Notes: generated by a model from the letters alone, not told the origin. Counted from the first letter of the stretch, positions 2,143-51,257 are shown. The stretch is DNA of 63,646 nt from Patescibacteria group bacterium (GCA_041664365.1 JBAYKW010000008.1:1-63646); one strand, 5' to 3'. A program made the numbers and translations.

Positions 2143-3993
2143 ATGCCAGAAAAAAAAAGCAAAAAGAAAAAAGAGACTGCTGAAAAGAAAACTAACAAGC
2201 AAAAAAGAAAGAGTCATCTCCCGGCGATATTTACAGTTTTGATATGTATCGTTGTTTTTTTTGTTGCTGCCGTCGCAGTTTATTCGAATCTTTATGAACA
2301 GAAGATATACCCCGGTGTTTCGGTAGGACAAAAAAAATTACAGGGTTTATCTTACATGGAAGGAATAGATCAAATTGAAAATGCAATAATTGGTATTGAA
2401 GATGAGGGTTTGGTGTTTATTTATCAAGATACGGAATTGGTCTTAGACTCTAAAATGACAAGCATTGAAAGTGGTGTTGAATATGAAATATTCTATTTTG
2501 ATGGTAATACGATGATTGATGAAGCATATCTGACGGGAAGAAGAGGATCATATTTGAATAAGCTCAGGGATCAATTAGCAGCGCTCATGTTCGGAAGAGA
2601 TATCCCTGTCGAATACTTTTTAGATTTGAGTAAAGTTGAGATTGTTTTGAAAGAAAAATTTTCACAATTTGAATCGCCCCATATTGATGCATCTTTGGCA
2701 GTGAATGATGATTTATCCTTCTCAATTACGAAGGAGCAGTCGGGAAAGGTATTTGATTATGATTTAATAATGAATGAGGTAAAAAATAAATTTGTATCAC
2801 TTCAGCCGGGATCAATAAACATGGAATTAATATTTGATCCGATTCAGATAACACAAAAACAAGCCACTGCATTTTTATCTGATGCGGAAAAAATAGCAAA
2901 GTATGCACCGTTTAAAATAAATTACGATGACAAAGCCTGGGAAATTTCGGAAGAAGAATTCCGCGAATGGTTAAACTTTCTACCCGATGCTCAGTCAGGA
3001 ATCAAAATCGGGTTAGACGGAGAAACAGTTGGAAAATATCTTGATACTTTGCGCGAAGTAGTGGATATCCCGGTATCGGATGGTAAATTCAGAATGGAGG
3101 CGGACAGAGTTGTGGAATTCCAGGGCAGTAGACCGGGGGTAATTATTGATTCAGAAAAAACGATACAGAAAATTACCGAAGATATTATTAACAATAGCGG
3201 TAAAGAAACAAGCCTGGTTGTTAAAACTGAAGAACCGGAAATTTCTGTCGGCAATGTAAATGATCTTGGGATCAAAGAACTGATTGGTACGGGTAAGTCT
3301 GATTTTACCGGCAGCCCCACGAATAGAAGAGCGAATATCAAGCTGGGCGCGGAAAAGTTGAACGGGATATTAATCAAACCCGGAGAGGAATTTTCACTGC
3401 TGAAAGCCCTGGGCAGTTTTGAAGCATCCGAGGGCTGGTTGCCGGAATTGGTGATTAAAGGGAATAAAACTGTCCCTGAGCTTGGTGGTGGCGCATGCCA
3501 GTTCGGAACTACTATGTTTAGGACCGCACTGAATACCGGCCTGCCGATTACTAACCGACAAAATCACTCTTATTCGGTTTCCTACTATTTCCCCGTAGGA
3601 ACGGATGCTACAATTTATGATCCGGCGCCTGATTTTAAATTTATCAATGACACAAAACATTATATTTTAATTCAAACCAAAATTGAAGAAAACATAATGA
3701 CTTTTGAAATGTGGGGTACAAAAGACGGCAGGGTAGCGGAACAGACAACTCCCGTGCTTTCAAATTATGTAAGTCCCCCCGCCACAAAAATAGTGGAGAC
3801 AACTGATCTTGCTCCGGGCGTGACTAAGTGCACGGAGAAGGCACATACCGGCGTAACCGCATCATTTGACTATAAGGTAACTTATGAGGAAGGTGAAGTT
3901 AAAGAACAGAATTTTACCAGCAAATATAAGCCTTGGCAGGAGGTGTGTTTGAAAGGGGTGGAAAAGTTAAGTGAAGAACCTAAGCCAGAATAG
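2143..3993 (+). CDS. VanW-family protein with N-terminal TM and putative PG-binding repeats
   Basis: NRRANI, GEEFS, GGGACQFGTT-FR, R-NHSY-VSYY, G-DATI motifs. Confidence 0.9.
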   Translation: MPEKKSKKKKETAEKKTNKQKRKSHLPAIFTVLICIVVFFVAAVAVYSNLYEQKIYPGVSVGQKKLQGLSYMEGIDQIENAIIGIEDEGLVFIYQDTELVLDSKMTSIESGVEYEIFYFDGNTMIDEAYLTGRRGSYLNKLRDQLAALMFGRDIPVEYFLDLSKVEIVLKEKFSQFESPHIDASLAVNDDLSFSITKEQSGKVFDYDLIMNEVKNKFVSLQPGSINMELIFDPIQITQKQATAFLSDAEKIAKYAPFKINYDDKAWEISEEEFREWLNFLPDAQSGIKIGLDGETVGKYLDTLREVVDIPVSDGKFRMEADRVVEFQGSRPGVIIDSEKTIQKITEDIINNSGKETSLVVKTEEPEISVGNVNDLGIKELIGTGKSDFTGSPTNRRANIKLGAEKLNGILIKPGEEFSLLKALGSFEASEGWLPELVIKGNKTVPELGGGACQFGTTMFRTALNTGLPITNRQNHSYSVSYYFPVGTDATIYDPAPDFKFINDTKHYILIQTKIEENIMTFEMWGTKDGRVAEQTTPVLSNYVSPPATKIVETTDLAPGVTKCTEKAHTGVTASFDYKVTYEEGEVKEQNFTSKYKPWQEVCLKGVEKLSEEPKPE

Positions 3994-3995
3994 CG

Positions 3996-5033
3996 ATGGA
4001 TCCAAATGAATATCTGAAAGGGAAGTTAGAGACTTGCGCTCAAACCGAGTTAAGACCTGTTGATCGCGAGTTTTTTAAATTGTACGGCGTACAGGATTTT
4101 ATTTATCGGATGCTCATGCTTAAGAAATTCAGAAAATGGAAAACAAGTGACGAATATGCCGGTGAAATAAAAAAATCGATAACTTATGCAGTTGCAAAAA
4201 ATGAACCATTCGAACTTTCCTGGTTTTTTGGTGGTTATAAGCTTTGGCGTTTTCCGTCCGCTCCGCTAGTTGATTGGGCGGAACTATTTACAATTTCATA
4301 TCTGGTAGAATATGCATCGATGATTGCAAAAGTGTATGAACCGGGAATTAAAATTGTTTTCTGGGCAGCTCATCCTTCAGTTATGAAACTCCAGAGTAAT
4401 ATTCCGGAAAATGATTGTCAGGAGTATCGCGATTCATTTGATAATCTGCTTAGTATAATTCATCCTTATTTACCGATAAATTTGAAAGTTGAATTAAAGT
4501 CGTTTGAATCTCTGTATCCGAATAATGGAGAATATCAGGCAGAACTTAATCAAATGATTATGGATGTTGAAAATGAATATAAAAACGGATGGACAGCTGA
4601 AAGAAAGGATAAAAAAAATGCATCATCTATTTTAAACATCCAATGGCAGGGTGCTGAGAACTGGGAGTCGCTTTCAAGTGATGAAAAAGAAGAAAAAATA
4701 CGGCGGGGTCCCATAGTACATGACGGTTATTGCCGGCTTTCGAAGATCAGTCAGGCAGTACGCGGTTTAGGAAAAGTTGATTTAACTGCTACACCCATTC
4801 CGGGCGGATCGATCGCTGTTGGAACTTCTGCGTCATCAGTAACCAAGTTCTGGACCGGATTTGGCGTGTTAGAAAAGAGGGGCGATGAATATGTAGAGAG
4901 GATTCTCTCGCCTCAGCAGTTAGAATCGGTGAAAGAGATGCCACATGAGAAGATAAAAAGCAATATTGTTCCATTAAAGAATTTTGAAGAAATATGGATA
5001 TTCAACAATGAAATAAATTTTTCATTGAAATGA
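3996..5033 (+). CDS. Hypothetical protein, distant Dit1/PvcA (isocyanide synthase)-like
   Basis: NEPFEL..FGGYK, DWAELF..SYL, KVYEPGIKI line up by eye with PvcA GEPIEF..AFPAK, DMAERL..SFL, LFYAPGAKI. Confidence 0.5.
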   Translation: MDPNEYLKGKLETCAQTELRPVDREFFKLYGVQDFIYRMLMLKKFRKWKTSDEYAGEIKKSITYAVAKNEPFELSWFFGGYKLWRFPSAPLVDWAELFTISYLVEYASMIAKVYEPGIKIVFWAAHPSVMKLQSNIPENDCQEYRDSFDNLLSIIHPYLPINLKVELKSFESLYPNNGEYQAELNQMIMDVENEYKNGWTAERKDKKNASSILNIQWQGAENWESLSSDEKEEKIRRGPIVHDGYCRLSKISQAVRGLGKVDLTATPIPGGSIAVGTSASSVTKFWTGFGVLEKRGDEYVERILSPQQLESVKEMPHEKIKSNIVPLKNFEEIWIFNNEINFSLK

Positions 5034-5506
5034 TAAAAACAGATAAAAATTTCAAAATTTTAGGATTCTTGATGCCCTGGTTTTTATATTTTGTAATATA
5101 TGGTACTTTATGTTTCACCGGTCGAAGTTCTTTGTATAAAAGCAATGTTTGTGTTGAAGAACCGATGATCAATTACTATTGGGCGGTCATTCTTGCTACA
5201 ATTATGGGTCTCTTTTTTTCTTTCCCAAAATCTAAATTATTCACATGGTTCTTAAGTGCTACAAAATATTTTAGAAATGCCAAAAGCAAAAATAAATTTT
5301 ACTATCAGTTAAAGTCATACATCAATACATTTTTTTGGTCTTTTATCATTATTCTAATATTTTTTTCGCCGTCTTATCTGTATGTTACGAGTAAACGCGG
5401 TCCATATTCGTATTTTTTAATAGTTTCTGTATTTTCAATAATTTATGCAACTGCAGACGCGTTTGTGCCTTTATTTAGAAAGTTTCTTCTTAGAAAGAAA
5501 AAGTAA
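5030..5506 (+). CDS. Hypothetical membrane protein
   Basis: About four hydrophobic segments; ATGA overlap with the upstream gene. Confidence 0.7.
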   Translation: MIKTDKNFKILGFLMPWFLYFVIYGTLCFTGRSSLYKSNVCVEEPMINYYWAVILATIMGLFFSFPKSKLFTWFLSATKYFRNAKSKNKFYYQLKSYINTFFWSFIIILIFFSPSYLYVTSKRGPYSYFLIVSVFSIIYATADAFVPLFRKFLLRKKK

Positions 5507-5559
5507 TTTTATAGCATTAATTGTCTCTCTGAACAAATCAATTTTTAAGGATAAAAAGC

Positions 5560-5829: not shown

Positions 5830-6852
5830 ATGGAAGCGGAAAAAATAATTACAGCCAAAGATAAACCGGAGGATAAAACACTGGATCTGACATTGAGACC
5901 GCGCGCGCTCAGTGAGTTTGTCGGGCAGGAAAAAATCAAAAAAAACCTCCAAATATTTATGCAGGCAGCTCAGCAAAGAAAAGAGGCGATTGAGCATACT
6001 TTGGTTTATGGTCCTCCGGGAATCGGTAAAACAACCCTGGCGCATATTATTGCAAATGAAATGGGGGTAAACATCCGTGTTACTTCGGGACCGGCGATAG
6101 AACGTGCGGGAGATCTGGGTGCGATTCTAACCAACTTGAATGACGGAGATATTTTATTTATTGATGAGATCCACCGACTACCAAGGATTGTGGAAGAAAC
6201 ATTATATCCGGCGATGGAAGATTATTCTTTGGATATAGTTGTCGGCAAAGGACCGGCGGCGCGGACGCTTCGCCTGGATCTGCCTCAGTTTACGATTATC
6301 GGTACGACAACCAGAGCCAGTCTGTTATCTGCTCCGCTCCGTGACCGTTTCGGCATTACATACCGGTTAGATGAATATACCGACAAACATATGGAAGAAA
6401 TATTGAGAAGGTCGGCAAAAATATTAGGGATTGATGTTCTGCCCGGCGCTCTGGAAGAAATCGCGAAGCGATCAAGACGCATTCCGCGCATTGCCAACCG
6501 TATTCTGAAGAGAGTAAGAGATTTTGCGCAGGTTGAATCACGAGAAAAAATTGATAAAGAAATAGCGCAGGACGCGCTCAGCCGTCTTGAGATTGATCCT
6601 TTAGGCTTAGATGTCGTGGATCGCAGGATACTTGAGACAATTATCAAAAAGTTTAACGGCGGGCCGGTGGGGATAAACACTATTGCCGCCGCAACCAGTG
6701 AAGAAAAAGAAACGATCGAAGAAATCTACGAACCGTTTCTGCTTCAGATGGGATTTATCGCCCGAACGGCCAGAGGCAGAGTAATAACGGAGCAGGCTTA
6801 TAAACATCTGGGCATAGATTTACCGGGTGATTATCAAAATAAATTGATTTGA
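5830..6852 (+). CDS. ruvB: Holliday junction branch migration helicase RuvB
   Basis: [41 protein letters not shown]. Confidence 0.98.
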
Positions 6853-6859
6853 AGCGAGA

Positions 6860-7114
6860 ATGACCTTCCCACTTTATGTATTACTAATAGGATATGCGGT
6901 AGTAATTTTCATATATTTAATTTTTAGCGCAATTTTGTTGTATCACATATTCCGTTTTGGGTATTGGGACTCGTCAACCAAGCTGATGGTTTTTCTTTAT
7001 TTTGCCGGCTCACTGGTAATTTTTATTTCAACATTCATTTTCTCCATTGATATTGACTGGTCTGAATCAATTACGCTATTCTCTAATATCCAGTTTAATT
7101 TTTCTTTCAACTAA
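6860..7114 (+). CDS. Small two-TM hypothetical protein
   Basis: Hydrophobic ORF in operon context; YHIFRFG motif. Confidence 0.7.
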   Translation: MTFPLYVLLIGYAVVIFIYLIFSAILLYHIFRFGYWDSSTKLMVFLYFAGSLVIFISTFIFSIDIDWSESITLFSNIQFNFSFN

Positions 7115-7117
7115 CCT

Positions 7118-7726
7118 ATGGATCCATTTAAATATTTTCCAGACAAGAGGCCAAACGAGGAGATCGTTTTGTTGCTGAGAAGACACTGGCACGAAATAAT
7201 AGGGTATTTTCTTGTCTTGATTTTGGAGATTGTTCTGCCGATAATTATTTTTATAGTATTTTTAAGATTTACGGAATTTGTCTGGGATAAGGATTCACCA
7301 ATATCCGTACTGATATTTTTCAGTGCAAGCTCATATTACTTATTTATTTGGCTTTTCTTTTTCCATCATTGGATCGACTATTATTTGGACGTGTGGGTAG
7401 TAACTGACCAAAGAATTATTAATATTGAACAAAAAGCACTTTTTTCCAGGACTGTCTCAGAATTGAATATGAGTACGATACAGGATGTTACCAGTGAGGT
7501 GAAAGGAAAGCTGGCGACCATACTGAAATTTGGCGATGTCCATATTCAAACTGCAGCGGAAGAAAAGCGTTTTGTTTTTGAAAAAATTCCGAATCCCCAG
7601 GAAGTAGCAACAAAAATCACTGAACTTCATAGATTGGCAGAGCATAAGAACGGCTTAAATAATCCGACCAGCCAGTTGCAAAATGATCAATCGGAAGCTA
7701 AAGACAATGTATCTCAAACATTTTAA
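7118..7726 (+). CDS. Membrane protein with bacterial PH (bPH_2) domain
   Basis: LLRRHW, DVWVVTDQRII-IEQ, IQDVT, FGDVHIQTA. Confidence 0.85.
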   Translation: MDPFKYFPDKRPNEEIVLLLRRHWHEIIGYFLVLILEIVLPIIIFIVFLRFTEFVWDKDSPISVLIFFSASSYYLFIWLFFFHHWIDYYLDVWVVTDQRIINIEQKALFSRTVSELNMSTIQDVTSEVKGKLATILKFGDVHIQTAAEEKRFVFEKIPNPQEVATKITELHRLAEHKNGLNNPTSQLQNDQSEAKDNVSQTF

Positions 7727-8738
7727 CTACCTACTTCCTAATAAGCATATAGCGCAAAAGCCCGTTAATCCTCGAGACCACTCGAGACTTTTAGTTTTGG
7801 ATAAAAATAGCGGAGAATTACAGCACAAGCATTTTTACGATATTTCGGAGTTTTTAAACAAAGGGGATGTCGTTGTCATGAATAACTCCAAGGTAATCCC
7901 AGCTAGGTTGCTTGGACAAAAAGAAACCGGCGGGAAGATGGAGATATTTCTTCTGAACAAGGTTGGTAAGGGGCTGTGGGAAGTACTGGTCGGTGGGAAA
8001 GGGCAGAAAGAAAATTTAACTGTTTTATTTCCGAAAAATTTAAAAGCAACGCTGATTGAAAGGAAGGAGGGCGGGACCTGGATTGTAAGTTTTAATAAAA
8101 AAGGTGAGGAGTTTGAAAAACTGTACAAAAAAATCGGTGAAGCTCCGGTACCGCCATACATTAAAGAGAAATCTGATCTGAAAAAATACCAAACGGTGTA
8201 CGCAAAGAAAGAAGGTTCAGTTGCTGCCCCGACCGCCGGCTTTCATTTTACCAAAGGATTAATCAACAGCCTGAAAAGGAAAGGGGTAGAATTCCAGGAG
8301 GTTACCCTGCACGTGGGACTGGGTACGTTCCAGCCGGTAAAGGTATCCGATATTACCAAACATAAAATGCATCCGGAGTTTGTTGATGTACCAAAAGAAA
8401 CATTGGCAAAGTTATGGCAGGCTAAGAAAGATGGACGCAGAATTATTGCGGTCGGTACAACTAGCGTACGTGTATTGGAAACGGTTATGGCCGAATTGAA
8501 GAATAAAAAAAATCCCCCAAAGGAATCTTTCAAAGCATGGGTGAATATTTTTATTTATCCCGGATTCAAGTTCAAATTTGTGGATGCTATGATCACTAAT
8601 TTTCATCTGCCGGAATCAACTCTGCTGATGCTGGTATCCGCTTTTGCCGGCAGGAAGAATATCCTGCGTGCATATGAGATTGCCAAGGAAAAAAACTATC
8701 GTTTTTATAGTTTTGGTGATGCGATGCTGATTAAATAA
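7707..8738 (+). CDS. queA: S-adenosylmethionine:tRNA ribosyltransferase-isomerase
   Basis: IAQKP, PPYI, YQTVYA, GSVAAPTAGFHFT, TLHVGLGTF, VGTTSVR, TNFHLP, YRFYSFGDAM. Start moved to the second ATG. Confidence 0.98.
   Translation: MYLKHFNYLLPNKHIAQKPVNPRDHSRLLVLDKNSGELQHKHFYDISEFLNKGDVVVMNNSKVIPARLLGQKETGGKMEIFLLNKVGKGLWEVLVGGKGQKENLTVLFPKNLKATLIERKEGGTWIVSFNKKGEEFEKLYKKIGEAPVPPYIKEKSDLKKYQTVYAKKEGSVAAPTAGFHFTKGLINSLKRKGVEFQEVTLHVGLGTFQPVKVSDITKHKMHPEFVDVPKETLAKLWQAKKDGRRIIAVGTTSVRVLETVMAELKNKKNPPKESFKAWVNIFIYPGFKFKFVDAMITNFHLPESTLLMLVSAFAGRKNILRAYEIAKEKNYRFYSFGDAMLIK
8689..8738 (+). repeat. queA 3' tail, copy 1 (attL-like, functional gene end)
   Basis: 47/50 identical to 10669-10718; 8679-8738 is 52/60 identical to 13249-13308. 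Confidence 0.9.
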
Positions 8739-8752
8739 GAATCAATAAGAAA

Positions 8753-8780
8753 GAAGCCGCGATTTCGAAATCGCGACTTC
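8753..8780 (+). terminator. Hairpin terminator after queA, homologous to 13319-13345
   Basis: GAAGCCGCGA-tttcgaaa-TCGCGACTTC. Confidence 0.7.
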
Positions 8781-8867
8781 GTTTACTTAATTTAGGCATT
8801 TAAACTCCGAATTTCAATTTACTATAGGTGTAATATAGGCTGTGTACGGGGTAATTGGTGATGTATT

Positions 8868-9506
8868 CTAAAAAAAATTAGCGGTTGGGTTAAGTGGTCG
8901 GTGGAAAGTAATGCCGTTATTGGCAGGTTTATTTTTAAACTCTTGGTCCGTTAATGTTATGCGTATACCATATTCATTATCAATAAATTCATATTTATCA
9001 AAATAATTTATACCCTCTTTATTACCAACCTCTATATTAGGGTCTTCTTTTTGATTTATATAAATATCAATTATTCGGCCTTGTTTTAAATTGAATTTAT
9101 TAGGGATAATAAAGTAACCTGGTATAATTTGGTTGTTAAAAGTATGCAGGGAATCCAAATCAAATATAATGATTTTTAAAATATTAATAGGGATTTTTGA
9201 TTTGATACCTGGTAATTTTTTTATTTGTAGTATATGGCCATTCTTAGATTTAAAATGGGATACACCTGATATATAATGGTAAGTAAATTCTATAAGTTCT
9301 ATATTTAAACGTTTAAATTGTTTATAGTAGTTGTCAATAATTTCACTAGACTTATCTACGTCATATAATGCTCCTCCAAATTTATTTTTTGGGAAACATA
9401 TTTTTACATAAGGCTCCTTGTGTTTATCGGATTCACTTAGTATGTTAAATATTTTAAATAAATTATTTTGATCATCTTTGATTAATAATCTATCTATTTT
9501 TATCAT
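8868..9506 (-). CDS. Hypothetical protein, extremely AT-rich
   Basis: 212-aa ORF rich in I/K/N; no recognised family. Confidence 0.7.
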   Translation of the reverse strand: MIKIDRLLIKDDQNNLFKIFNILSESDKHKEPYVKICFPKNKFGGALYDVDKSSEIIDNYYKQFKRLNIELIEFTYHYISGVSHFKSKNGHILQIKKLPGIKSKIPINILKIIIFDLDSLHTFNNQIIPGYFIIPNKFNLKQGRIIDIYINQKEDPNIEVGNKEGINYFDKYEFIDNEYGIRITLTDQEFKNKPANNGITFHRPLNPTANFF

Positions 9507-9512
9507 ATATTT

Positions 9513-10169
9513 TTATTTCTTATAATGCTGAATAATCTGATTAGTAGTCTCTGAAATGTTTAATGATCCATCTACGGAAAGCCACGATAAATTTTCTTGT
9601 ATCACTTGTTCTTTTAAGATACGTGCAGACGCAATATCTCTTTGCATCCAATTGCGCCATGCTAATTTTCTATCTGAAGTTTTAGCAAGGACATTGTTTA
9701 TCCAGGGTCGTTTACTGTAGTTGTGTAATTGGAACTCTTTGGTAGCTATTAAATAGTATACATGTTGAGGTGATGCCAGCAATGGAGCAAGGGTGTGCGG
9801 AGATACATATCCATCAAATAGCAAAGGCCTTTTGTCTTCTTTCAGACATTGCTTCAAATCTTCTTTAATTAACTCAAATTCTTCATCTGAAAATGATTCT
9901 TCTGTAGCAATTTGTTCTTCGAGAGGTCGAAGCCAAAGATCATCACCAGTAATTCGGGAGATTTTGTAAAAGGTAGGATGTTCTGTGGGGGATGCTTTTT
10001 CACGGTGTTGATCTATCCATTCATCAGAGTGATATACATTCCAATTCAGACGTTCTGCAATCAAAGAAGAGATCGTAGTTTTTCCAGAACAAACTGATCC
10101 GCTAAGCCAGTACATTCGGGAAAAATCTTTCTTTGTAAACATATTTTTTAAATCAGATATTCTTATCAT
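9513..10169 (-). CDS. P-loop kinase-like (nucleoside/shikimate kinase fold) protein
   Basis: N-terminal Walker A SGSVCSGKTT; LLFDG strand; C-terminal LSVDG. Confidence 0.75.
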   Translation of the reverse strand: MIRISDLKNMFTKKDFSRMYWLSGSVCSGKTTISSLIAERLNWNVYHSDEWIDQHREKASPTEHPTFYKISRITGDDLWLRPLEEQIATEESFSDEEFELIKEDLKQCLKEDKRPLLFDGYVSPHTLAPLLASPQHVYYLIATKEFQLHNYSKRPWINNVLAKTSDRKLAWRNWMQRDIASARILKEQVIQENLSWLSVDGSLNISETTNQIIQHYKK

Positions 10170-10563
10170 TTTTTATTTCATCACCAGTTGCGACACATTC
10201 TATTTCAATGCGAGCTCCTAATGGTAAGGCTTGAACTGCCAGGGCAATTCTAGTGGGTAAAATGTCTTTAAATTTAGCAGTATATATTTCGTTTACTTTA
10301 GCATATTCAGCCATATCAATTAAATATATACGCACTTTGGTTAAATTATCTAAAGTCCAACCAACTTCAGATAAAATAGCTTCTATATTATTAAATGTTT
10401 GTTTTGTTTCTATCTCAATTCCACCTTCTACTAATTTTCCCGTATCTATGCTGATGCCAATTTGACCGGAAATCTCCAATCTATACTTTGAAGATTCTAA
10501 AATTGCTTGAGAATATAACTTTGGTGCTACTGGCGCTTTAGATGATGTAATTGTTTTTTTCAT
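10153..10563 (-). CDS. RidA/YjgF/UK114 family protein
   Basis: YSQA, ISGQIG, KVRIYL-DM--YAKVNEIY, PTR, LPLGARIEIE. Confidence 0.93.
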   Translation of the reverse strand: MKKTITSSKAPVAPKLYSQAILESSKYRLEISGQIGISIDTGKLVEGGIEIETKQTFNNIEAILSEVGWTLDNLTKVRIYLIDMAEYAKVNEIYTAKFKDILPTRIALAVQALPLGARIEIECVATGDEIKNDKNI

Positions 10564-10585
10564 ATTATTTGGTTATTGAATTTCG

Positions 10586-10718
10586 CCTAAGAGGTTGTTT
10601 ACACACCTATTGGCATCATAGCCAACATTAGCTAAAAAGTAAATAATTTTTTTAATTAAAATACAAAGAAAAAAACTATCGTTTCTATAGTTTCGGGGAT
10701 GCGATGCTGATTAAATAA
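10586..10718. repeat. 133-bp right-end module: promoter arm plus queA tail copy 2 (attR-like)
   Basis: Colinear without indels with 13176-13308 (offset 2590); the tail still reads NYRFYSFGDAMLIK*. Confidence 0.85.
10615..10643 (-). promoter_or_regulatory. Inward-facing promoter TTTACT-17-TATGAT
   Basis: Inside the repeat module, pointing at the RidA gene. Confidence 0.6.
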
Positions 10719-10766
10719 AAACAGCCCAAGTGAGGGACGTGTGTGGGTGGTTATAGAGGAAGAAGA

Positions 10767-11609
10767 TTATCTTGAAAAATTATCTAATTTCTTCAAATCT
10801 TCTTTATTCATTTGCCAGTCTGCTGAAGTAGCAATTTCTTGTAAGTGTTCTAAATTTAATGCTTTCGGTATTGTGATTACCCCTTGTTTTGATACTAGCC
10901 AATTCAACGCTATTTGGGCTTTTGTCTTGCCGTATTTTTTTGATAATTGTTCAAGAATAGGAAAGTCAGTATTAAATAAATCTCCTCTGGCAAAAGGGCG
11001 ATAAGCTATAATAAGTATATTATTATTTTGACAGAATGGAATTATATCAGATTCCATATTAGCAGTATTTTGCCCCACATTTCTAGTTATTAAATTGTAT
11101 TCAATCTGGTTGGCCACTATTTTATTTTGACTGAATTTTTGTGCTTCTTTTAACTGTAAAACAGAAAAATTGCTCACTCCTATAAATTTAGTTTTATTAG
11201 TTTCTACTAAATGATTCATAGCTCGCATACTATTTTCTATTGAGAAATCTGGGTTTGAAGAATGAATTAAGTATAAATCAACATAAGGGGTATCAAGTCT
11301 CATCAGACTATCGTCCATTGCTTTTATTATTCCATCATAACTTAAGTTTTCCTTAGCTACTTTGGTTGTAATAAACAATCTTTTTCTATCAAAACTTTTT
11401 ATTGCTTGACCTACCAATTCTTCAGTGTGTCCTTGGGCATATATTTCAGCTGTATCGATATGCGTCAACCCAAGTTTTATAGCATTTTCTAAAGCTTCAA
11501 TACATTTCTGATCATTATTATATTTTGGTGTTAAATCTCCACCCATTCCCCAAGTACCAATACCGATTACTGGTATCTGTATTGCAGATGTGACGTTTGC
11601 AAATTTCAT
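10767..11609 (-). CDS. Aldo/keto reductase
   Basis: IGIGTWGMG, IDTAE-Y, LFITTKV, DLYLIHS, IGVSNF, NQIEYN, IAYRPF, AQIALNW, IPKA. Confidence 0.95.
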   Translation of the reverse strand: MKFANVTSAIQIPVIGIGTWGMGGDLTPKYNNDQKCIEALENAIKLGLTHIDTAEIYAQGHTEELVGQAIKSFDRKRLFITTKVAKENLSYDGIIKAMDDSLMRLDTPYVDLYLIHSSNPDFSIENSMRAMNHLVETNKTKFIGVSNFSVLQLKEAQKFSQNKIVANQIEYNLITRNVGQNTANMESDIIPFCQNNNILIIAYRPFARGDLFNTDFPILEQLSKKYGKTKAQIALNWLVSKQGVITIPKALNLEHLQEIATSADWQMNKEDLKKLDNFSR

Positions 11610-11679
11610 CTTTTATAAGTTAATCTTATTTTCATTCGTGTCGGATATACGATGATGGATGATGTTAAAAGACTCGTTA

Positions 11680-12093
11680 TTATAGCAATTTAAAATAATC
11701 ATCAACATTGTTTATTGCCTCTTCTAAAGTATTATACCTTACTACTTTTATATTAGAGTTTCCACTTATCATCGCTGATAATCTTTTATCGGCCTGCTCT
11801 CTATACAAACACAATATTTTTTTATCTATATTTTCAGCTTTACCAATTTCATAGCCAATACCAAGCGAAGGGGTTGATACTTCAGCAATTATAACATCAG
11901 CTTCTTTCACCCATGCCATATCACGATTATAGATAAGTTCATCGGTAATGTCTTCACCTACACTAGTGAGATTTTTATCACCAAGGTGTTCGGTTAAAAC
12001 TTGGCCGTATGTAGCGAGGTGTTGGATTAATTTAAAATATAAATCCATATCATCCCTACCACCACGTATTGATCCAGCAAAATAAATTTTCAT
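11680..12093 (-). CDS. Nucleoside 2-deoxyribosyltransferase / DNPH1(Rcl)-like N-hydrolase
   Basis: KIYFAGSIRGGR, IYNRD--W, ADVIIAEVS-PSLG-GYEIG. Confidence 0.9.
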   Translation of the reverse strand: MKIYFAGSIRGGRDDMDLYFKLIQHLATYGQVLTEHLGDKNLTSVGEDITDELIYNRDMAWVKEADVIIAEVSTPSLGIGYEIGKAENIDKKILCLYREQADKRLSAMISGNSNIKVVRYNTLEEAINNVDDYFKLL

Positions 12094-12144
12094 ATCTTTT
12101 TAATATCTTGTTTATTTAAAGGGGTTATGAGTCTTTCAATTTTT

Positions 12145-12203
12145 CCTAATACTGTATTTACGCATCTGTTAACAGCATAGCCAAAATTAGCTTAAAAGTA
12201 AAT
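12145..12203. repeat. Partial (59-bp) module copy without queA tail; carries promoter TTTACT-17-TATGCT (minus, 12174-12202)
   Basis: 54/59 identical to 13176-13234, including a 38-nt exact run. Confidence 0.9.
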
Positions 12204-12228
12204 TAAATTACAGTTCACATTTTTAATA

Positions 12229-13137
12229 CTAAGATGATCTATAAATATTTTTTATTGCCTTTTCCCAAACCACTGCATGAGTCGCGCCCGCGGTTACTAA
12301 AATATTTTTATGACCACTTTTTTTAGCATCCAAAATAACATCAATTGCGTTATTATCTCTCATAGTATTCATATCGTGAGCTACGGAGTCTGGTGAAGGA
12401 TCGGAAGATTTTGTAAATAAATCTTGATCTTTCGCACGAAGAGCTTCATTCTGCGACCTGGATGCTAATTCATTAAATGGTAATCCGGCTTCTTTTTCAA
12501 CTACTTCGGCAATTTTTTCTGAAGTTAAGTCTAGATATTTTTCTACTCCCGGAACCGCAAATAAAATCAGGTCATATAAAGCTTCCAAGGATGGTTCTTT
12601 GCCATCTTCATACAATTTTCTCATTCCATAAGTTGCCAGCCATGTTATTGCTTCGGTGGTGTTATGCTTTAATTCATTGTTTTCAGCTTTTATATTTAAG
12701 ACAGCCTTTAATTGGTCTAAGCCCGAGATATCCCATGATTGAACTTTGAATCCTTGTTTTCTGGCTAGCCAGGTAAAATATAATTGTTCCTGTCGATCTA
12801 TTATTTCTTTAGGATCCATTGCCGATATTTCATCAATTGTTTTTCCTGGAAAATATGTTTCCAGTGTGCTAGCCACCTCGGTTAAAACAAGATCAGGATT
12901 GATTTCAGCAAGTGTTTTTTCAAAATCATGGATCTTTTGTAATTGATTTGTATGTTTTCTGCCATCAATAAAAATATTTTCCTCGCCGTTTGTTGCCGAA
13001 TAAGCATATCTATCTTCATATTTTATTTTTTCCACTTCATCGGGACTTCGAAGCAGACTTTTTGGATCACTCACAGTTTCATCTATAGATGAGCCCTGTT
13101 CCGTAGATTGCGTTTCCTTTCGTGTTCCAAATTCCAT
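12229..13137 (-). CDS. Hypothetical protein, possible TraB/GumN/TIKI-like metallohydrolase fold
   Basis: DLVLTE near the N-terminus; MRDNN and ILVTAGATH near the C-terminus, resembling the RD..vvvG.aH pattern. Confidence 0.5.
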   Translation of the reverse strand: MEFGTRKETQSTEQGSSIDETVSDPKSLLRSPDEVEKIKYEDRYAYSATNGEENIFIDGRKHTNQLQKIHDFEKTLAEINPDLVLTEVASTLETYFPGKTIDEISAMDPKEIIDRQEQLYFTWLARKQGFKVQSWDISGLDQLKAVLNIKAENNELKHNTTEAITWLATYGMRKLYEDGKEPSLEALYDLILFAVPGVEKYLDLTSEKIAEVVEKEAGLPFNELASRSQNEALRAKDQDLFTKSSDPSPDSVAHDMNTMRDNNAIDVILDAKKSGHKNILVTAGATHAVVWEKAIKNIYRSS

Positions 13138-13175
13138 GATTTTATTAATAAATATAGTAATTTATTACTTCTTCA

Positions 13176-13308
13176 CCTAATAGTGTATTTGAGTACCTGT
13201 TAACAGCATAGCCAAAATTAGCTTAAAAGTAAATAATTTATTAATCAAATTGCCAAGAAAAGAAACTATCGTTTTTATAGTTTCGCCGATGTTATGCTGA
13301 TTAAATAG
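13176..13308. repeat. 133-bp right-end module: promoter arm plus degenerate queA tail copy 3
   Basis: Tail reads IAKKRNYRFYSFADVMLIK*; promoter TTTACT-17-TATGCT at 13205-13233 (minus). Confidence 0.85.
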
Positions 13309-13318
13309 AAAAAAGAAA

Positions 13319-13345
13319 GAAGTCGCGATTCGAAAATGCGACTTC
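13319..13345. terminator. Hairpin terminator homologous to that after queA
   Basis: GAAGTCGC...GCGACTTC followed by TTTT. Confidence 0.7.
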
Positions 13346-13408
13346 TTTTATTTATAAACACTCTTTATTGATAATTCAACAATGATATTCGATAATCTAT
13401 GATTATAC

Positions 13409-13888
13409 TTATTGGACGTGTCTTCTTAGTACTTCAACACTGTTTTCATCATTAGATCCCCCTATTGAACTTTTTATCAGATCAATGAAATTAATTCTTT
13501 CATATTCTTGGGCGACACGTTCCATAATATGACCTTTTTCAGCTAACTGATGCCTTCTATCGGTTGAATCCTGATCGGCAGTCTTGCCACTATTATTTTC
13601 ATCATCATTATCTAATACATCTAGCATTTCTTCAATTTCATCTTCATTAGTTGGTAGATCGTGTCCTTCAAACAAATGTTTTACAACCTCTTCCTCTATT
13701 CTTGAATACATGTCATGAATCGCTTGCTTTGGATCAGCCCCAGCATCAATTTCTTCATCGTATAATGATAACGCGGCTCGTATCATGTCAGTATTTTTTA
13801 AAGCTTCATTAACTGCCTTTTGAGCATATTTTAATGCTTGCTGATCAAGTGCCGCTTCATTTAATCTTCCTTCGAATGGATGATTCAT
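13409..13888 (-). CDS. Acidic hypothetical protein
   Basis: 159-aa D/E-rich ORF. Confidence 0.7.
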   Translation of the reverse strand: MNHPFEGRLNEAALDQQALKYAQKAVNEALKNTDMIRAALSLYDEEIDAGADPKQAIHDMYSRIEEEVVKHLFEGHDLPTNEDEIEEMLDVLDNDDENNSGKTADQDSTDRRHQLAEKGHIMERVAQEYERINFIDLIKSSIGGSNDENSVEVLRRHVQ

Positions 13889-13934
13889 AATTTTATTGCT
13901 TAGTTAATTATTTTTGCTGATTAATTAAACTTTT

Positions 13935-14213
13935 TTAGTCCTCCCACCCGCATGCGTCTGCGCATTCATTCAAACCAATTGTATCAAAACAAACGGTTTT
14001 GCCGGATTCTTCTTCGCAGAATAATTTAGTACATTTTTTAACACAGTCATTTAACTTTCGTAATTCATATACATCCTTTATATTGCCGGGATTTAATTCA
14101 ATATTGTCCGCATTCTCTATGTTTTGATTAATATCTGCATTGTTCGGTTTACTGACAGACCAAATCAATATTGCGACAATGGCGAAAATAATAATAAAAA
14201 GTAATGTTTTCAT
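13935..14213 (-). CDS. Small membrane-anchored Cys-rich protein
   Basis: N-terminal TM; C-terminal C-x3-C-x3-C...C...C-x3-C. Confidence 0.7.
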   Translation of the reverse strand: MKTLLFIIIFAIVAILIWSVSKPNNADINQNIENADNIELNPGNIKDVYELRKLNDCVKKCTKLFCEEESGKTVCFDTIGLNECADACGWED

Positions 14214-14216
14214 GAG

Positions 14217-16034
14217 TTAATATTGTTTTATCAGTTCAGTCCCACGGTAGTAGTGTTTTAAAATATCTTCATATAAACTACCATTCTCTGCCATGGAACG
14301 CGCACCGTAGGCACTTAGACCGACCCCGTGCCCGAGTAATGTCCTTCCATTACATCCCGGGTCGTCAACGGAAACAAGCCAGTTGTAAGGTCCGCCGGAC
14401 CAGACTTCTTCCCACGATCTGGTTCGGCCGTCAGTTTGCGAAAAATATGGTGTGACAACTATTTCATTTTCATAGGTCACCATTACTCCTTCCGTATCAA
14501 TAATCGCTTGGGTAATATTCGGTGAGCGGGTTTCCAGACCGTATCCGCGGTAGACCTGGTCATTGACCGCGTCAATTGTGAAGTTTTCATCAGCATGTTT
14601 TGTACCAGTTTGGTAATGATATATTGCATAAGTACGCGCGGCTGTCAGTAGGGCTTTTAAATAATCCGGGTCATTGTCATTGCTGGCCTCGGCGATGCCT
14701 CTTAAATATGATTCCAAAGGTAATTCGTTGATAACCCATAATTTATTTGTTGCACTGGCATAGTGAATTTCTATAATTCCCCGGAAACGGTTATCGTTGA
14801 GTGATGTGTTCCACTCCGGCCGATGTTCGTAGTTGGTAATTTCCATAATTGTATCTGTGCTTTTCGGGATTGCCCGGAGCGGTAAATTTGAAATAATTGT
14901 TTCATGCGCAGTGACAAGGGAATAGCTGTTATTCTCATATTTAAGCGTAATAATACTGTCTTTAGCAAAACTGCCAATCAGTGTGTTGTTAGTATCTCTT
15001 ACTTCATAGTCGCCACTTCCAGAAACTGAGACTCCGGCCGTTGTTGGATACAACCCGACTCTGATATCAGGTTCGCCGAGAGTTTCATGGACAGGTTGGA
15101 CACCATTGGTCACATTTATTTTGATTTTTAACCCGCCGCTTTTTATCCAGGTAAGGTTTTCCGCAACCAGGCCAAAATTTTCTGTATAGCTTCCCAGGGT
15201 ATCAGGTGCCTGCAGGGCAAAAGTAAACCGCACCTTCTCCCCGGTTTTTACGGGGACCCCCTTCATAATCGTCGGGCGATATGCAGTCGGCCAGAGGCTG
15301 TGCCGGAAGGAACTGGTTCTGCCGATCGGTTTATTGATATTCAAAGCAACGAAGTGGTTCCCATTCGGGTACCAGGTTTGAGAGCCGGTATTTTTAAACT
15401 CCACCCACGCGGTGAAAGCTTTACCGGGTTCGATATTTATCTCCTTGTTTGATTGAGCAACTAATTTTGCTGAAAAATGCGGAAGGGGATTACCGACACG
15501 CATTACGATTTCCAGATCACCACCGCTGATCCAGGTCAGGTGTTCGGCGACCAATCCGAATTTTTCCGAATATTCACCGACTACTTTCGGGGCGGTTAAT
15601 GCAAAACGAAAAATTCCTGTTTCTCCCGGTTTGACGACGGACGTCTGCATTTTACTCGGACGGTAGTATGCCGGCCAAAAAACATCCCGGAAGTTACTGT
15701 TTCTTCCTGTCGGGTTGGTAACGTTTAATGCTAGGAAATTTTTTGAATTATTGTACCAGGTTTCCGTCCCGGTGTTCTTAAATTTTGCTTCAAAAGTCAG
15801 TCTTCCACCCGGGTTGATGTTTATTATTTTATAACTCTTGCTGATCAGTTCCGCCTTATATTTATTTGAAATATTATTTTCATAGCTTGATGCATTGGCA
15901 GGGAGAATCAGCTGATTATTTTCCAAATAATGACCGACTTTATTGAGAGTGAATGATGCAATTATAACAACCAAGAACACCAGTAGTAGCCAGCTTGTTT
16001 CCCGTAAAAATGATTTTTGTTTTTGTTTTTTCAT
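14217..16034 (-). CDS. SpoIID/LytB-domain protein with two NBR1-like Ig (FW) domains
   Basis: INELPLESYLRGIAE, ALLTAARTY, DQVYRG, GHGVGLSAYGA, ILKHYY; two F-NTG--TW...G---RF-F---AP repeats. Confidence 0.9.
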   Translation of the reverse strand: MKKQKQKSFLRETSWLLLVFLVVIIASFTLNKVGHYLENNQLILPANASSYENNISNKYKAELISKSYKIININPGGRLTFEAKFKNTGTETWYNNSKNFLALNVTNPTGRNSNFRDVFWPAYYRPSKMQTSVVKPGETGIFRFALTAPKVVGEYSEKFGLVAEHLTWISGGDLEIVMRVGNPLPHFSAKLVAQSNKEINIEPGKAFTAWVEFKNTGSQTWYPNGNHFVALNINKPIGRTSSFRHSLWPTAYRPTIMKGVPVKTGEKVRFTFALQAPDTLGSYTENFGLVAENLTWIKSGGLKIKINVTNGVQPVHETLGEPDIRVGLYPTTAGVSVSGSGDYEVRDTNNTLIGSFAKDSIITLKYENNSYSLVTAHETIISNLPLRAIPKSTDTIMEITNYEHRPEWNTSLNDNRFRGIIEIHYASATNKLWVINELPLESYLRGIAEASNDNDPDYLKALLTAARTYAIYHYQTGTKHADENFTIDAVNDQVYRGYGLETRSPNITQAIIDTEGVMVTYENEIVVTPYFSQTDGRTRSWEEVWSGGPYNWLVSVDDPGCNGRTLLGHGVGLSAYGARSMAENGSLYEDILKHYYRGTELIKQY

Positions 16035-24006: not shown

Positions 24007-24120
24007 TTATTTCTTCTTTTTCTTTGCAACTTTTTTCTTTGCCACCTTTTTCTTAGCTGGCTTTCTCTTTGCTACTTTCTTTTTAGCAACTTTTTTCTTT
24101 GCAACTTTCTTTTTTGCCAT
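24007..24120 (-). CDS. 37-aa Lys/Ala-rich histone H1-like protein
   Basis: Hand translation [37 protein letters not shown]; GAGGAGGTG SD. Confidence 0.85.
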
Positions 24121-24411
24121 TATATCACCTCCTCTCATGGAAAATATAAAATCAAAAAGAATAAACTCACATAATAATTGTAAACTATATTAAAAAAATG
24201 CGCAATAGTTATGTAAATACTATTTGTTAATAACTATTTTCATATTTTATTAAGAAATATTTATTAATATTTTAATAGTATTCAAAATAAAGAAAATATT
24301 ATTTAATTTGATCTTCCTTATCAAAAAACACCATTTTACATAGGCGTTTTATTTGATGATTAGCAGATGTGGAATAGTGTGTCGCATCAGTGCATTTTCG
24401 ATAAAATGCCC

Positions 24412-24488
24412 TGGTGGACCCGAGCGGATTCGAACCGCTGACCTCCTCGTTGCAAACGAGGCATTCTAACCAGCTGAACTACGGGCCC
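24412..24488 (-). tRNA. tRNA-Ala(TGC)
   Basis: Cloverleaf; G3:U70 pair; loop TTTGCAA; CCA. Confidence 0.96.
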
Positions 24489-24499
24489 CCGATTGTGCT

Positions 24500-24742
24500 T
24501 TATATTGCTGTCATCGAAAAGATAGATTTAAAGATATTACCCAAGATACCGGACATAAGCAGAAAACTCACTATTATGCATAATATCCCGAGTAGCTTGT
24601 AGAAGAGATTCGTGCCTCCATCTAAGCCCAAATGTGCTTCCGCCCATTCAATCCTCCCAAAAAACCTTAAAAACCACACTGATTTTATAACCATTAATGA
24701 CCCTACCGCAATGCCTATAATCCCGATAAAGAATTTTCCCAT
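24500..24742 (-). CDS. Small two-TM hypothetical protein
   Basis: FGRIEWAE..LG..GG..FYKLLG; lies between two tRNAs. Confidence 0.7.
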   Translation of the reverse strand: MGKFFIGIIGIAVGSLMVIKSVWFLRFFGRIEWAEAHLGLDGGTNLFYKLLGILCIIVSFLLMSGILGNIFKSIFSMTAI

Positions 24743-24755
24743 AGTGTTTTGTTAA

Positions 24756-24832
24756 TGGTGGGTTCGAGAGGATTCGAACCTCTGACCTCTTCGGTGTAAA
24801 CGAAGCGCTCTAACCAGCTGAGCTACGAACCC
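24756..24832 (-). tRNA. tRNA-Val(TAC)
   Basis: Cloverleaf; loop TTTACAC; CCA. Confidence 0.96.
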
Positions 24833-24840
24833 GTGAATGG

Positions 24841-24927
24841 TGGTGCTCGGAGCGGGAGTTGAACCCGCACGCACGATAAGTGCCTAGGCCCTCAACCTAG
24901 TGTGTATACCAATTCCACCACCCGAGC
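24841..24927 (-). tRNA. tRNA-Leu(GAG)
   Basis: Long variable arm; loop TTGAGGG; CCA. Confidence 0.95.
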
Positions 24928-45877: not shown

Positions 45878-46021
45878 AGAATAAGAAACAAAAATAAAAA
45901 ACATTTAAATATGGATATGAATACTAACAGTTATACAGCTGTTTTGGCTGATATTGGCCAAATATGCCATATAAATGCCACCATTAATAAAGTACGTTAA
46001 TTGCGTGCTTTTTTTGTAAAT

Positions 46022-51217: not shown

Positions 51218-51257
51218 GACAACAGATACTTTATTCTTGAACATTTTAAATCCCCTA

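Follow-up and report, generated by a model that had tools for sequence, protein, structure and literature searches.

Cis-mobilizable elements (CIMEs) and microCIMEs accrete in tandem at the 3′ ends of their targets, among them streptococcal fda and tRNA-Lys genes (PMC7563491). Islands also occupy the ends of protein-coding genes, with SGI1 in the 3′ end of trmE and others at the 5′ end of dusA and in guaA, and as far as two reports go on this point, such islands supply a replacement gene end (PMC8409611, PMC4482086). The pdif modules of Acinetobacter are small, carry open reading frames (ORFs) or none, are marked by short Xer-type sites in alternation, and depend on host Xer proteins in trans (PMC13141974). 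Here we describe an arrangement at the 3′ end of queA, the gene for tRNA preQ1(34) S-adenosylmethionine ribosyltransferase-isomerase, in a groundwater Patescibacterium. The whole stretch analysed, referred to as the window, is 63,646 nucleotides (nt) long (Patescibacteria group bacterium, GCA_041664365.1 JBAYKW010000008.1:1-63646). In it the end of queA is present three times, as tails 1 to 3, and the DNA from tail 1 to tail 3 amounts to 4.57 kb. Cassettes very probably came to the queA end horizontally and serially, by recombination that duplicated the tail.

The queA units resemble CIMEs in that recombination genes are absent, direct repeats of the target end are present, the units are stacked in tandem, the target stays intact and decay is greatest farthest from the target (PMC7563491). 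CIMEs, however, derive from integrative and conjugative elements and integrative and mobilizable elements and ride on conjugation, whereas the queA units bear no trace of conjugation, mobilisation or integrase genes; neither the units nor the scanned window ORFs yielded remnants of a relaxase, coupling protein or integrase. The units also differ in being just 1.6-2.6 kb long, in having a Patescibacterium as host and in having queA as target. Like the trmE, dusA and guaA islands, they use a protein-coding site in a tRNA-modification gene and carry a replacement end, but those islands have their own tyrosine integrase beside the att site, and no integrase gene adjoins the att-like ends of the queA units. 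With the tycheposons of Prochlorococcus they share successive integrations at one site that push older elements inward, partial target copies between neighbours, degenerate remnants, and a streamlined host genome without classical mobile elements (10.1101/2020.12.28.424599). Tycheposons differ in having tRNA targets, recombinases and replication modules, and their excision was shown experimentally, whereas the queA units are known from sequence alone. Nor do the units look like transposons, as no transposase was found in them and the repeats are 50-110 nt long, 81-94% identical and diverged in the manner of coding sequence. A preliminary description of the window had named no known element that targets queA; in our literature search, incomplete in coverage, queA was likewise nowhere reported as an attachment site, and the only islands that came up lay beside queA, not in it.

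Three copies of the queA 3′ end

The gene, its tails and the associated terminators are as follows.

7707..8738, + strand: queA; ORF open from 7683, likely start at 7707, 343 amino acids (aa); Pfam PF02547 Queuosine_synth, E=2.4e-131
8679..8738, + strand: tail 1, the working queA 3′ end, attL-like; contains the perfect palindrome AAAACTAT-N7-ATAGTTTT
8753..8780, no strand assigned: terminator hairpin 1; its homology to the terminator 3 region extends to about 8789
10669..10718, + strand: tail 2, an orphan, non-coding (upstream stop codons) and intact at the peptide level
13249..13308, + strand: tail 3, attR-like and decayed (G->A, A->V, K->R), apparently the queA end displaced longest ago
13310..13354, no strand assigned: terminator 3 region, with a degenerate hairpin (13316-13345), homologous to the hairpin after tail 1

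The three tails had been noticed in the preliminary description and were found again at the same places (8679-8738, 10669-10718 and 13249-13308). The last 50 nt of queA match tail 2 at 47 of 50 positions and the last 60 nt match tail 3 at 52 of 60. A 28-nt degenerate tail pattern has exactly three sites in the 63.6 kb, against 0.00 expected from 100 shuffles, and further tail duplications within the window were sought and not found. The working queA is full length, is identical in product to a 343-aa database protein (P0001), and ends in KNYRFYSFGDAMLIK* as in relatives, so the target gene appears to have been restored by an element-borne copy. Tail 2 still encodes KNYRFYSFGDAMLIK*, and its three differences from tail 1 are all synonymous, as had been stated. 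Tail 3 had been described as drifted with its terminator retained, and this too held: it reads RNYRFYSFADVMLIK*, with two synonymous and five non-synonymous changes, the latter in invariant residues, and the hairpin behind it is homologous to that behind tail 1.

Only this clade has the tail palindrome (AAACTAT-N7-ATAGTTT) in perfect form, in 12 of 90 tails (repeat recoveries of the same loci counted), and genomes with an empty site have it too. We regard it as a candidate core, no more. Symmetric substitutions in the decayed tail of the relative L089 were tried as support for a hairpin; they lie in low-complexity A/T runs and fold differently, and were treated as weak. As a separate observation, the tail (10674-10720) is 87% identical over 47 nt to queA of a Firmicute, Brevibacillus laterosporus (NZ_CP011075.1:20983-21029), an unusually strong DNA-level conservation for a protein-coding stretch. 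When module plus tail were compared with plasmids and phages, the sole match was a bona fide Brevibacillus queA.

Inserted units and modules

Between the outer tails lie six genes, every one on the minus strand, and three copies of a module of about 70-85 nt, one of which precedes each of tails 2 and 3.

8739..10668, - strand: unit A, 1.93 kb; terminator 1, 212-aa gene, kinase-like gene, RidA gene, module, linker
8868-9506, - strand: 212-aa protein with no assigned function (unit A)
9513-10169, - strand: 218-aa P-loop kinase-like protein (unit A)
10153-10563, - strand: RidA/L-PSP (unit A)
10578..10646, no strand assigned: module copy 1, 15 nt upstream of the RidA start (minus strand); nhmmer E=2.1e-19
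10719..13248, - strand: unit B, 2.53 kb, possibly two units; reductase gene, transferase-like gene, module, 302-aa gene, module
10767-11609, - strand: aldo/keto reductase (unit B)
11680-12093, - strand: nucleoside 2-deoxyribosyltransferase-like protein (unit B)
12137..12204, no strand assigned: module copy 2, tail-less, upstream of the deoxyribosyltransferase-like gene; nhmmer E=1.4e-16
12229-13137, - strand: 302-aa protein, ChaN/GumN-like fold, no Pfam match (unit B)
13170..13236, no strand assigned: module copy 3, upstream of the 302-aa gene; nhmmer E=7.3e-18; followed by linker ATTTATTAATCAA and tail 3
13409..16034, - strand: native right flank; 159-aa gene, 92-aa Cys-rich small protein, SpoIID-like gene (14217-16034)

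The G+C content of the inserted interval is 0.25-0.37, against about 0.40-0.45 in the queA/ruvB and SpoIID-like flanks. The RidA, transferase-like and 302-aa genes each have a module 15-42 nt upstream. A module-plus-tail repeat (10582-10721 versus 13172-13311) had been proposed and is real, at 140 nt and 76% identity, while the tail-less module at 12137-12204 had been missed. Module copy 2 (12137-12204) shares an exact 33-nt repeat with module copy 3, where it occupies 13202-13234. Two modules with this repeat flank the 302-aa gene, which suggests, judging by the sequence, that this gene and its module could form a third unit. The modules are promoter-like on both strands, with TTTACT-17-TATGAT (or TAcAAT) on the minus strand toward the cargo and TTGACA-17-TAAAAA on the plus strand toward the recombinase gene of the linked copies described below. 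In module copy 1 the TTTACT-17-TATGAT of the minus strand is followed by CTTAGGCGAAAT, and the plus strand is promoter-like toward tail 2. Such motifs suggest that the modules may function as promoters; a promoter consensus scan of the modules was not significant in DNA so rich in A+T.

The repeat structure is not an assembly artefact, because 8573-12195, a stretch that takes in tail 1, the whole of unit A, tail 2 and the greater part of unit B, lies unbroken on an independent Logan contig from the source run, at an even depth of 16-20. Misassembly had been raised in the preliminary description, and this contig agrees with the structure as given. A chimera of several strains induced by the repeats would draw on the fact that repeats of 33-50 nt are near k-mer size and that the exact 33-nt repeat in the modules interrupts Logan contigs. 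That repeat, however, is the only place where the contigs break, and the homologous two-tail structure of the L002 lineage (below) was assembled four times independently (L002; L098, L088 and L099, from JGI, ENA and Logan). We find such a chimera hardly credible.

Empty and occupied sites in related genomes

The queA loci of related genomes (designated L001 and so on, with QueA identities to the window in brackets) supplied the comparison that the preliminary description had called for: four relatives have an empty site and three have different cargo, two of the three with orphan tails of their own. In L001 (87%, tblastn) and L002 (85%), the order from ruvB through queA and from the SpoIID-like gene onward follows that of the window, the one difference being what lies between queA and the SpoIID-like gene. 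At the empty sites of L091 (77%) and L092 (74%) the queA stop codon is 21 nt from a convergent SpoIID-like gene, and in L100 (75%) a single 89-aa gene separates the two. The empty site of L086 (85%), with queA, terminator, a homologue of the 159-aa gene and SpoIID, equals the window minus 8739..13308. No module and no significant array site (below) was found behind queA in the empty-site relatives. In the occupied sites, L001 has methyltransferase and Nudix genes headed by a module, with no orphan tail; L002 (also L088, L098 and L099) has genes for 81 aa, 155 aa and a Nudix protein headed by a module, plus an orphan tail; and L089 has genes for 64, 84 and 273 aa, then a decayed tail, a different Nudix gene headed by a module, and a terminator. 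The cargo proteins at the queA site are unrelated from genome to genome. Extra tails are confined to this clade among about 100 queA loci; in a set of 81 sequences, made up of the window and 80 queA loci, more than one tail was present in the window and L002 alone.

Unit A and the L002 unit have both ends in common and differ in cargo. The common left end consists of the tail, a hairpin with compensatory changes, and cgtttacttaatt; the common right end consists of the module, the linker TTAAAATACAAAG that stands ahead of tail 2 and of the L002 orphan tail, and the tail, at 86.5% identity over 141 nt (L002 12529-12668). A common left end of a second type was considered for unit B and L089; it amounts to about 11 of 14 nt only and is not relied on.

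Order and direction of insertion

The 300 nt that follow tail 3 were compared with the sequence that follows queA in L086 and are 84.9% identical to it (291 aligned nt), whereas the sequence following tail 1 reaches 60.7%. The 159-aa gene of the native flank has an ortholog in L086 (84.8% aa identity). The L002 orphan tail directly precedes a small Cys-rich 84-aa gene, which matches the arrangement after queA in L100. Because native downstream sequence thus lies behind the distal tails, the distal tail is the end that queA had at first, still in its native surroundings, and the working tail arrived with the insert. The L002 orphan tail differs from the resident working tail at four positions, all synonymous, so that the two young orphan tails (window tail 2 and the second tail of L002) have 7 of 7 changes synonymous. 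With 18% of possible single changes being synonymous, the chance of this is about 0.18^7 = 6e-6. By this pattern the two tails diverged as working gene ends in separate lineages, which favours horizontal arrival and disfavours duplication in situ. The most decayed tail is also the most distal, and tail 3, with its five non-synonymous changes, fits the oldest displaced copy.

On these sequence grounds the 4.57-kb interval appears as foreign DNA that came in at least two successive events, unit B before unit A; the matched empty sites, the differing cargo, the native context of the distal tails, the synonymous-only divergence and the low G+C content of the cargo all argue for insertion in at least two steps. 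The preliminary description had proposed serial insertion of two units. Its core, with at least two steps, the reading frame restored and the older tail displaced each time, was upheld, and the number of units may be three.

The module and a XerA-like recombinase

When metagenomes were scanned for the module pattern, the L001 and L002 contigs came up together with three new places, L082-L084; viral contigs gave 0 matches. In L082-L084 the module lies directly upstream of a gene for a 299-aa tyrosine recombinase, in the same orientation as before the window tails. The same module-recombinase arrangement was reached through protein homologues in L094-96 and L097, for a total of five distinct genomes with a protein of 288-299 aa. 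The XerA-like gene was found in genomes other than that of the window. Its product scores 229.7 against a curated cut-off of 220 for NCBIfam recomb_XerA_Arch, and its best solved relative is Pyrococcus abyssi XerA (4a8e, 1e-43). It scores 204 against a cut-off of 265 for TIGR02249, and between two aligned blocks it has 28 residues where VchIntIA (IntI4, 2a3v) has 69, so the extra domain of integron integrases is absent. Homology of the window module to the recombinase-linked copies extends through the leader to 3-12 nt before the recombinase start codon, which is where the queA tail starts.

The cargo-proximal end of the module, (C)TGTTAGGCGAAAT, is half of an array site of 25-35 nt, ATACGC-N4-7-TGTTRGGCGA(T/A), whose end is the 11-mer TTAGGCGAAAT. 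This 11-mer occurs about ten times independently upstream of accessory genes in 1.38 Mb of loci, where about 0.7 would be expected by our own estimate for a random 11-mer. Beside the recombinase gene the array sites alternate strictly in orientation, with eight sites in L097 and eleven, counting weak matches, in L083, and the intervals between sites hold one gene or no ORF. The arrays of L097 (343-5925) and L083 (9844-13577) share a module for a 109-aa membrane protein (90% aa identity) with the same site. Taken together, the L097 and L083 arrays look like a dif-module-type system in Patescibacteria.

One copy of the site was located in the window:

11643..11665, + strand: array-site copy GGATATACGATGATGGATGATGT, between the reductase and deoxyribosyltransferase-like genes; nhmmer E=0.015, the sequence being part of that model's training set

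An array-site matrix, trained on recombinase-linked loci only, gave its best scores in queA loci within the variable interval: L002 11421-11446 (25.6 bits), L089 10483-10505 (24.4), L089 9554-9576 (16.3) and window 11643-11665 (17.0). Of 11 matches, 4 are within variable intervals, which make up 6.1% of the sequence (binomial P=0.003). For the window insert alone the enrichment is not significant (3/31 weak matches). A cryptic array site seen by eye behind queA in the empty-site genomes L091 and L092 did not reach a significant matrix score. The queA-site units and the recombinase-linked arrays have no cargo in common beyond generic methyltransferase similarity. Nor is the locus at a chromosomal dif: besides the lack of module and significant array site behind queA in the empty-site relatives, no GC-skew switch other than the gene-strand change was found at the queA locus.

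The arrays resemble pdif modules in the alternation of sites beside the XerA-like gene in L097 and L083. They differ in that pdif sites are defined 11-6-11 XerC/XerD plasmid sites, whereas a single XerA-like protein and predicted sites are found here; in the window, moreover, the sites are few, weak and non-alternating, and a gene tail is duplicated. A likeness to integrons and to attC-site clusters that have no integron-integrase is seen in L094 and L097, where a promoter-bearing region separates the recombinase gene from a divergent array of small accessory genes. The core TGTTRGGC fits GTTRRRY (RYYYAAC), and the window resembles an integrase-less array. Against this likeness, the recombinase is without the IntI-specific extra domain, attC hairpins are not consistent (five array elements folded at z +0.1 to -6.9), the sites alternate, and some units contain several genes. 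None of the CIMEs, trmE/dusA islands, tycheposons or pdif modules fits the queA units fully.

Some further observations were made on the module and its surroundings. The sequence TATAGCCTATATTAGCTAAAATG, which resembles the module core TAGCCAAAATTAGCTAAAAAG, lies upstream of queA-region genes in more distant Patescibacteria (L003:6437-6462, L004:3450-3475, L006:5016-5041), and part of the module may therefore be a common promoter motif of the phylum. In L083, just upstream of the module and its recombinase gene, is a gene (6582-7571) for a 329-aa reverse transcriptase (RVT_1, 4e-20). A strong palindrome of about 140 nt (-28.6 kcal/mol, z -6.9) has two copies in L083 and an inverted one upstream of the L084 module (1-110); a retroelement or a repeat family may be behind it.

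Mechanism of insertion

The units may have been inserted as follows. An incoming circle would bear its own working last ~50-110 nt of queA, that is, the tail with or without the terminator, beside a promoter-bearing module. Single-crossover (Campbell-type) recombination would join the circle to the chromosomal queA 3′ end, keeping queA intact with the incoming tail and shifting the previous tail distally behind the module, where it would then decay. Unit B would have integrated before unit A, with the 302-aa gene and its module possibly a third event, and the recombinase-less units would have been moved in trans by a chromosomal XerA-like tyrosine recombinase. We infer the circular intermediates, the crossover point and the enzyme, the last because the module is homologous to the region upstream of its gene and because neighbouring arrays use the same short boundary site. 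Trans-acting site-specific recombination by a XerA-like enzyme, with recombinase-less units comparable to CIMEs or dif modules, has in our judgement about an even chance of being correct. The preliminary description had claimed integration at a protein-coding attachment site; insertion at the queA 3′ end stood, and the YRFYSFGD-coding stretch would be one candidate for a site-specific crossover. The array site is an alternative candidate for the true recombination site.

Several results count against site-specific recombination in trans. No recombinase was found in the units by Pfam, NCBIfam, PHROGs, PADLOC or tblastn, and no recombinase or transposase in 30 window ORFs by Pfam (most of at least 150 aa, with two giant ORFs and flank genes known by synteny only outside the scan). 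The preliminary description had suggested a search for tyrosine or serine recombinases beside homologous tails; no homologue of the XerA-like enzyme was present within 8-10 kb of queA at about 100 loci, nor in the window by tblastn. Neither a circle junction nor an 8738->13309 joint nor an empty-site variant was found in contigs of the source run, in which rare forms are hidden. The duplicated length varies (50 nt, 61 nt, and up to ~110 nt with the terminator), and tail-less modules exist in the window (12137-12204), L001 and L089. No similarity of the tail or terminator to the recombinase-linked region was detected, nor any core common to them, and the tail palindrome forms a thermodynamically weak hairpin that is not significant (z -0.3 to -1.35). 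The best array site in the window, at 17.0 bits, is marginal beside a background maximum of 16.1 bits, and the window has that one full site (11643-11665) plus three module half-sites, non-alternating. Finally, the informative genomes number only about 7 and belong to one clade.

Duplicated gene ends were also seen at other loci. In L083 (4777-5478) a gene for a 161-aa membrane protein lies between two copies of the last 26 nt of the recombinase gene with its hairpin (92% identical, 676 nt apart). A second small hotspot lies between a 345-aa gene and ruvB. There L091 (5183-5827) has a 172-aa minus-strand gene between duplicated 42-nt terminators (93% identical), L088 has a single terminator and thus an empty site, and the window (5024-5541) has a different, plus-strand ORF for a 158-aa membrane protein without duplication. 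Because of the duplications in L083 and L091, duplication of gene ends or terminators may be a general process in these genomes.

Such duplications around single inserted genes would also be accounted for by RecA-dependent homologous recombination after DNA uptake, in which the highly conserved queA end serves as portable homology, either for single-crossover integration of circles that were excised from the region behind a donor's queA or for double-crossover swaps of whole cassettes with queA at the left and an orphan tail at the right. This explanation calls neither for an att site nor for the recombinase that is missing near queA; it tolerates duplicated lengths of 50, 61 and about 110 nt (with terminator), and it fits an incoming left end that is merely a queA tail with a native-type terminator, a tail 87% nt-identical even to Brevibacillus queA, and a window that encodes a type IV pilus/competence-type ATPase (T2SSE). 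The homology available to RecA is, however, short (50-60 nt) and imperfect, and RecA leaves unexplained the conserved right-end module, its homology upstream of the recombinase, the array site in the cargo, and the origin of the first module-tail fusion. On balance we regard it as the chief rival, though rather unlikely and less probable than the XerA-like enzyme in trans. The units might instead be immobile scars of once-autonomous elements, in which the module stood between divergent cargo and int genes and attR followed, and from which int was later deleted. The homology to the recombinase 5′ region ends 3-12 nt from the int start codon, just where the tail begins, and integrated elements are well known to decay until only remnants between att sites are left, as in CIMEs (PMC7563491) and degenerate tycheposons (10.1101/2020.12.28.424599). 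Yet no int fragment or pseudogene is left, int lies near queA in none of about 100 loci, and at least two junction types (that of tail 2 and L002, and that of tail 3) would require near-identical clean deletions, so that we consider scars improbable.

A segmental duplication or rearrangement of the queA end in situ, with later gene gain and differential loss and without any horizontal insertion, is more improbable still. Slippage or unequal crossing-over can yield direct repeats of a gene end, but the sequences between the repeats are unrelated, the differences in the young tails are synonymous only, the cargo is low in G+C, and the distribution of empty sites and unrelated cargo is patchy relative to QueA identity. 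A wider reading that builds on the XerA-like enzyme is that Patescibacteria have a hitherto undescribed module-shuffling system, consisting of the single recombinase, a promoter-bearing platform module immediately upstream of the recombinase gene, and short alternating sites with a GTTRGGC core around one-gene modules. In such a system queA would be a second landing pad, itself without a recombinase, created by fusion of the platform module to the queA tail, with the gene end as attachment site. We hold this to be doubtful; if true, integrons or pdif modules would have a functional analogue in this system. No cassette system of Patescibacteria was found in our literature search, which was incomplete in coverage.

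Other features of the cargo and the window

The model of the 302-aa protein is confident (predicted local distance difference test score, pLDDT, 83.5) and shows a weak likeness to ChaN/GumN-type proteins and no recombinase fold; the structure predicted for the 212-aa protein (pLDDT 36.8) was unusable. The 302-aa protein has only three homologues in 5.8 billion proteins, one of them encoded directly upstream of tgt (L101:3363-6017). The tgt enzyme acts just before QueA. There are hints that some cargo at the queA site is related to queuosine or nucleoside salvage, with Nudix, deoxyribosyltransferase-like and kinase genes also present. In L102 a 300-aa homologue of the 302-aa gene lies between 70-nt direct repeats (1912-1981 and 3087-3156; 89% identical), which belong to a different, G+C-richer repeat family with a CTTCGG...CCGAAG hairpin. 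The RidA cargo protein (10153-10563, - strand) matches the C-terminal part of a PADLOC candidate defence protein, PD-T4-2_B (2.5e-18), which probably reflects just the shared RidA/L-PSP domain. An Rfam search of 7000-15000 at a permissive threshold gave three matches far below family cut-offs, taken as chance, and no RNA family in it explains the module or the tail.

Elsewhere in the window, a 43-aa ORF at 24007-24138 (- strand) has seven 15-nt tandem repeats encoding (V/P)AKKK and adjoins a cluster of tRNA genes for Ala, Val and Leu (24412-24927); from its sequence the product resembles a basic peptide of the histone-like or ribosome-associated kind. At 46001-58142 (+ strand) two giant ORFs, of 1738 and 2301 aa, stand side by side.

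Significance

Bacteria of the Candidate Phyla Radiation have tiny genomes, and to our knowledge almost nothing is known of the routes by which they gain genes. The queA locus is a concrete hotspot, where metabolic cassettes of 1.6-2.6 kb with recognisable ends and matched empty sites are stacked at the end of a universal gene. Among the cargo are RidA, a kinase, a reductase, Nudix proteins, methyltransferases and a nucleoside-transferase-like protein. Should its link with the XerA-like recombinase and the alternating sites prove true, the locus would point to a cassette-exchange system in a major part of bacterial diversity, and queA would join the protein-coding attachment sites. If plain homologous recombination is responsible, a conserved gene end would still act as portable homology for gene gain.

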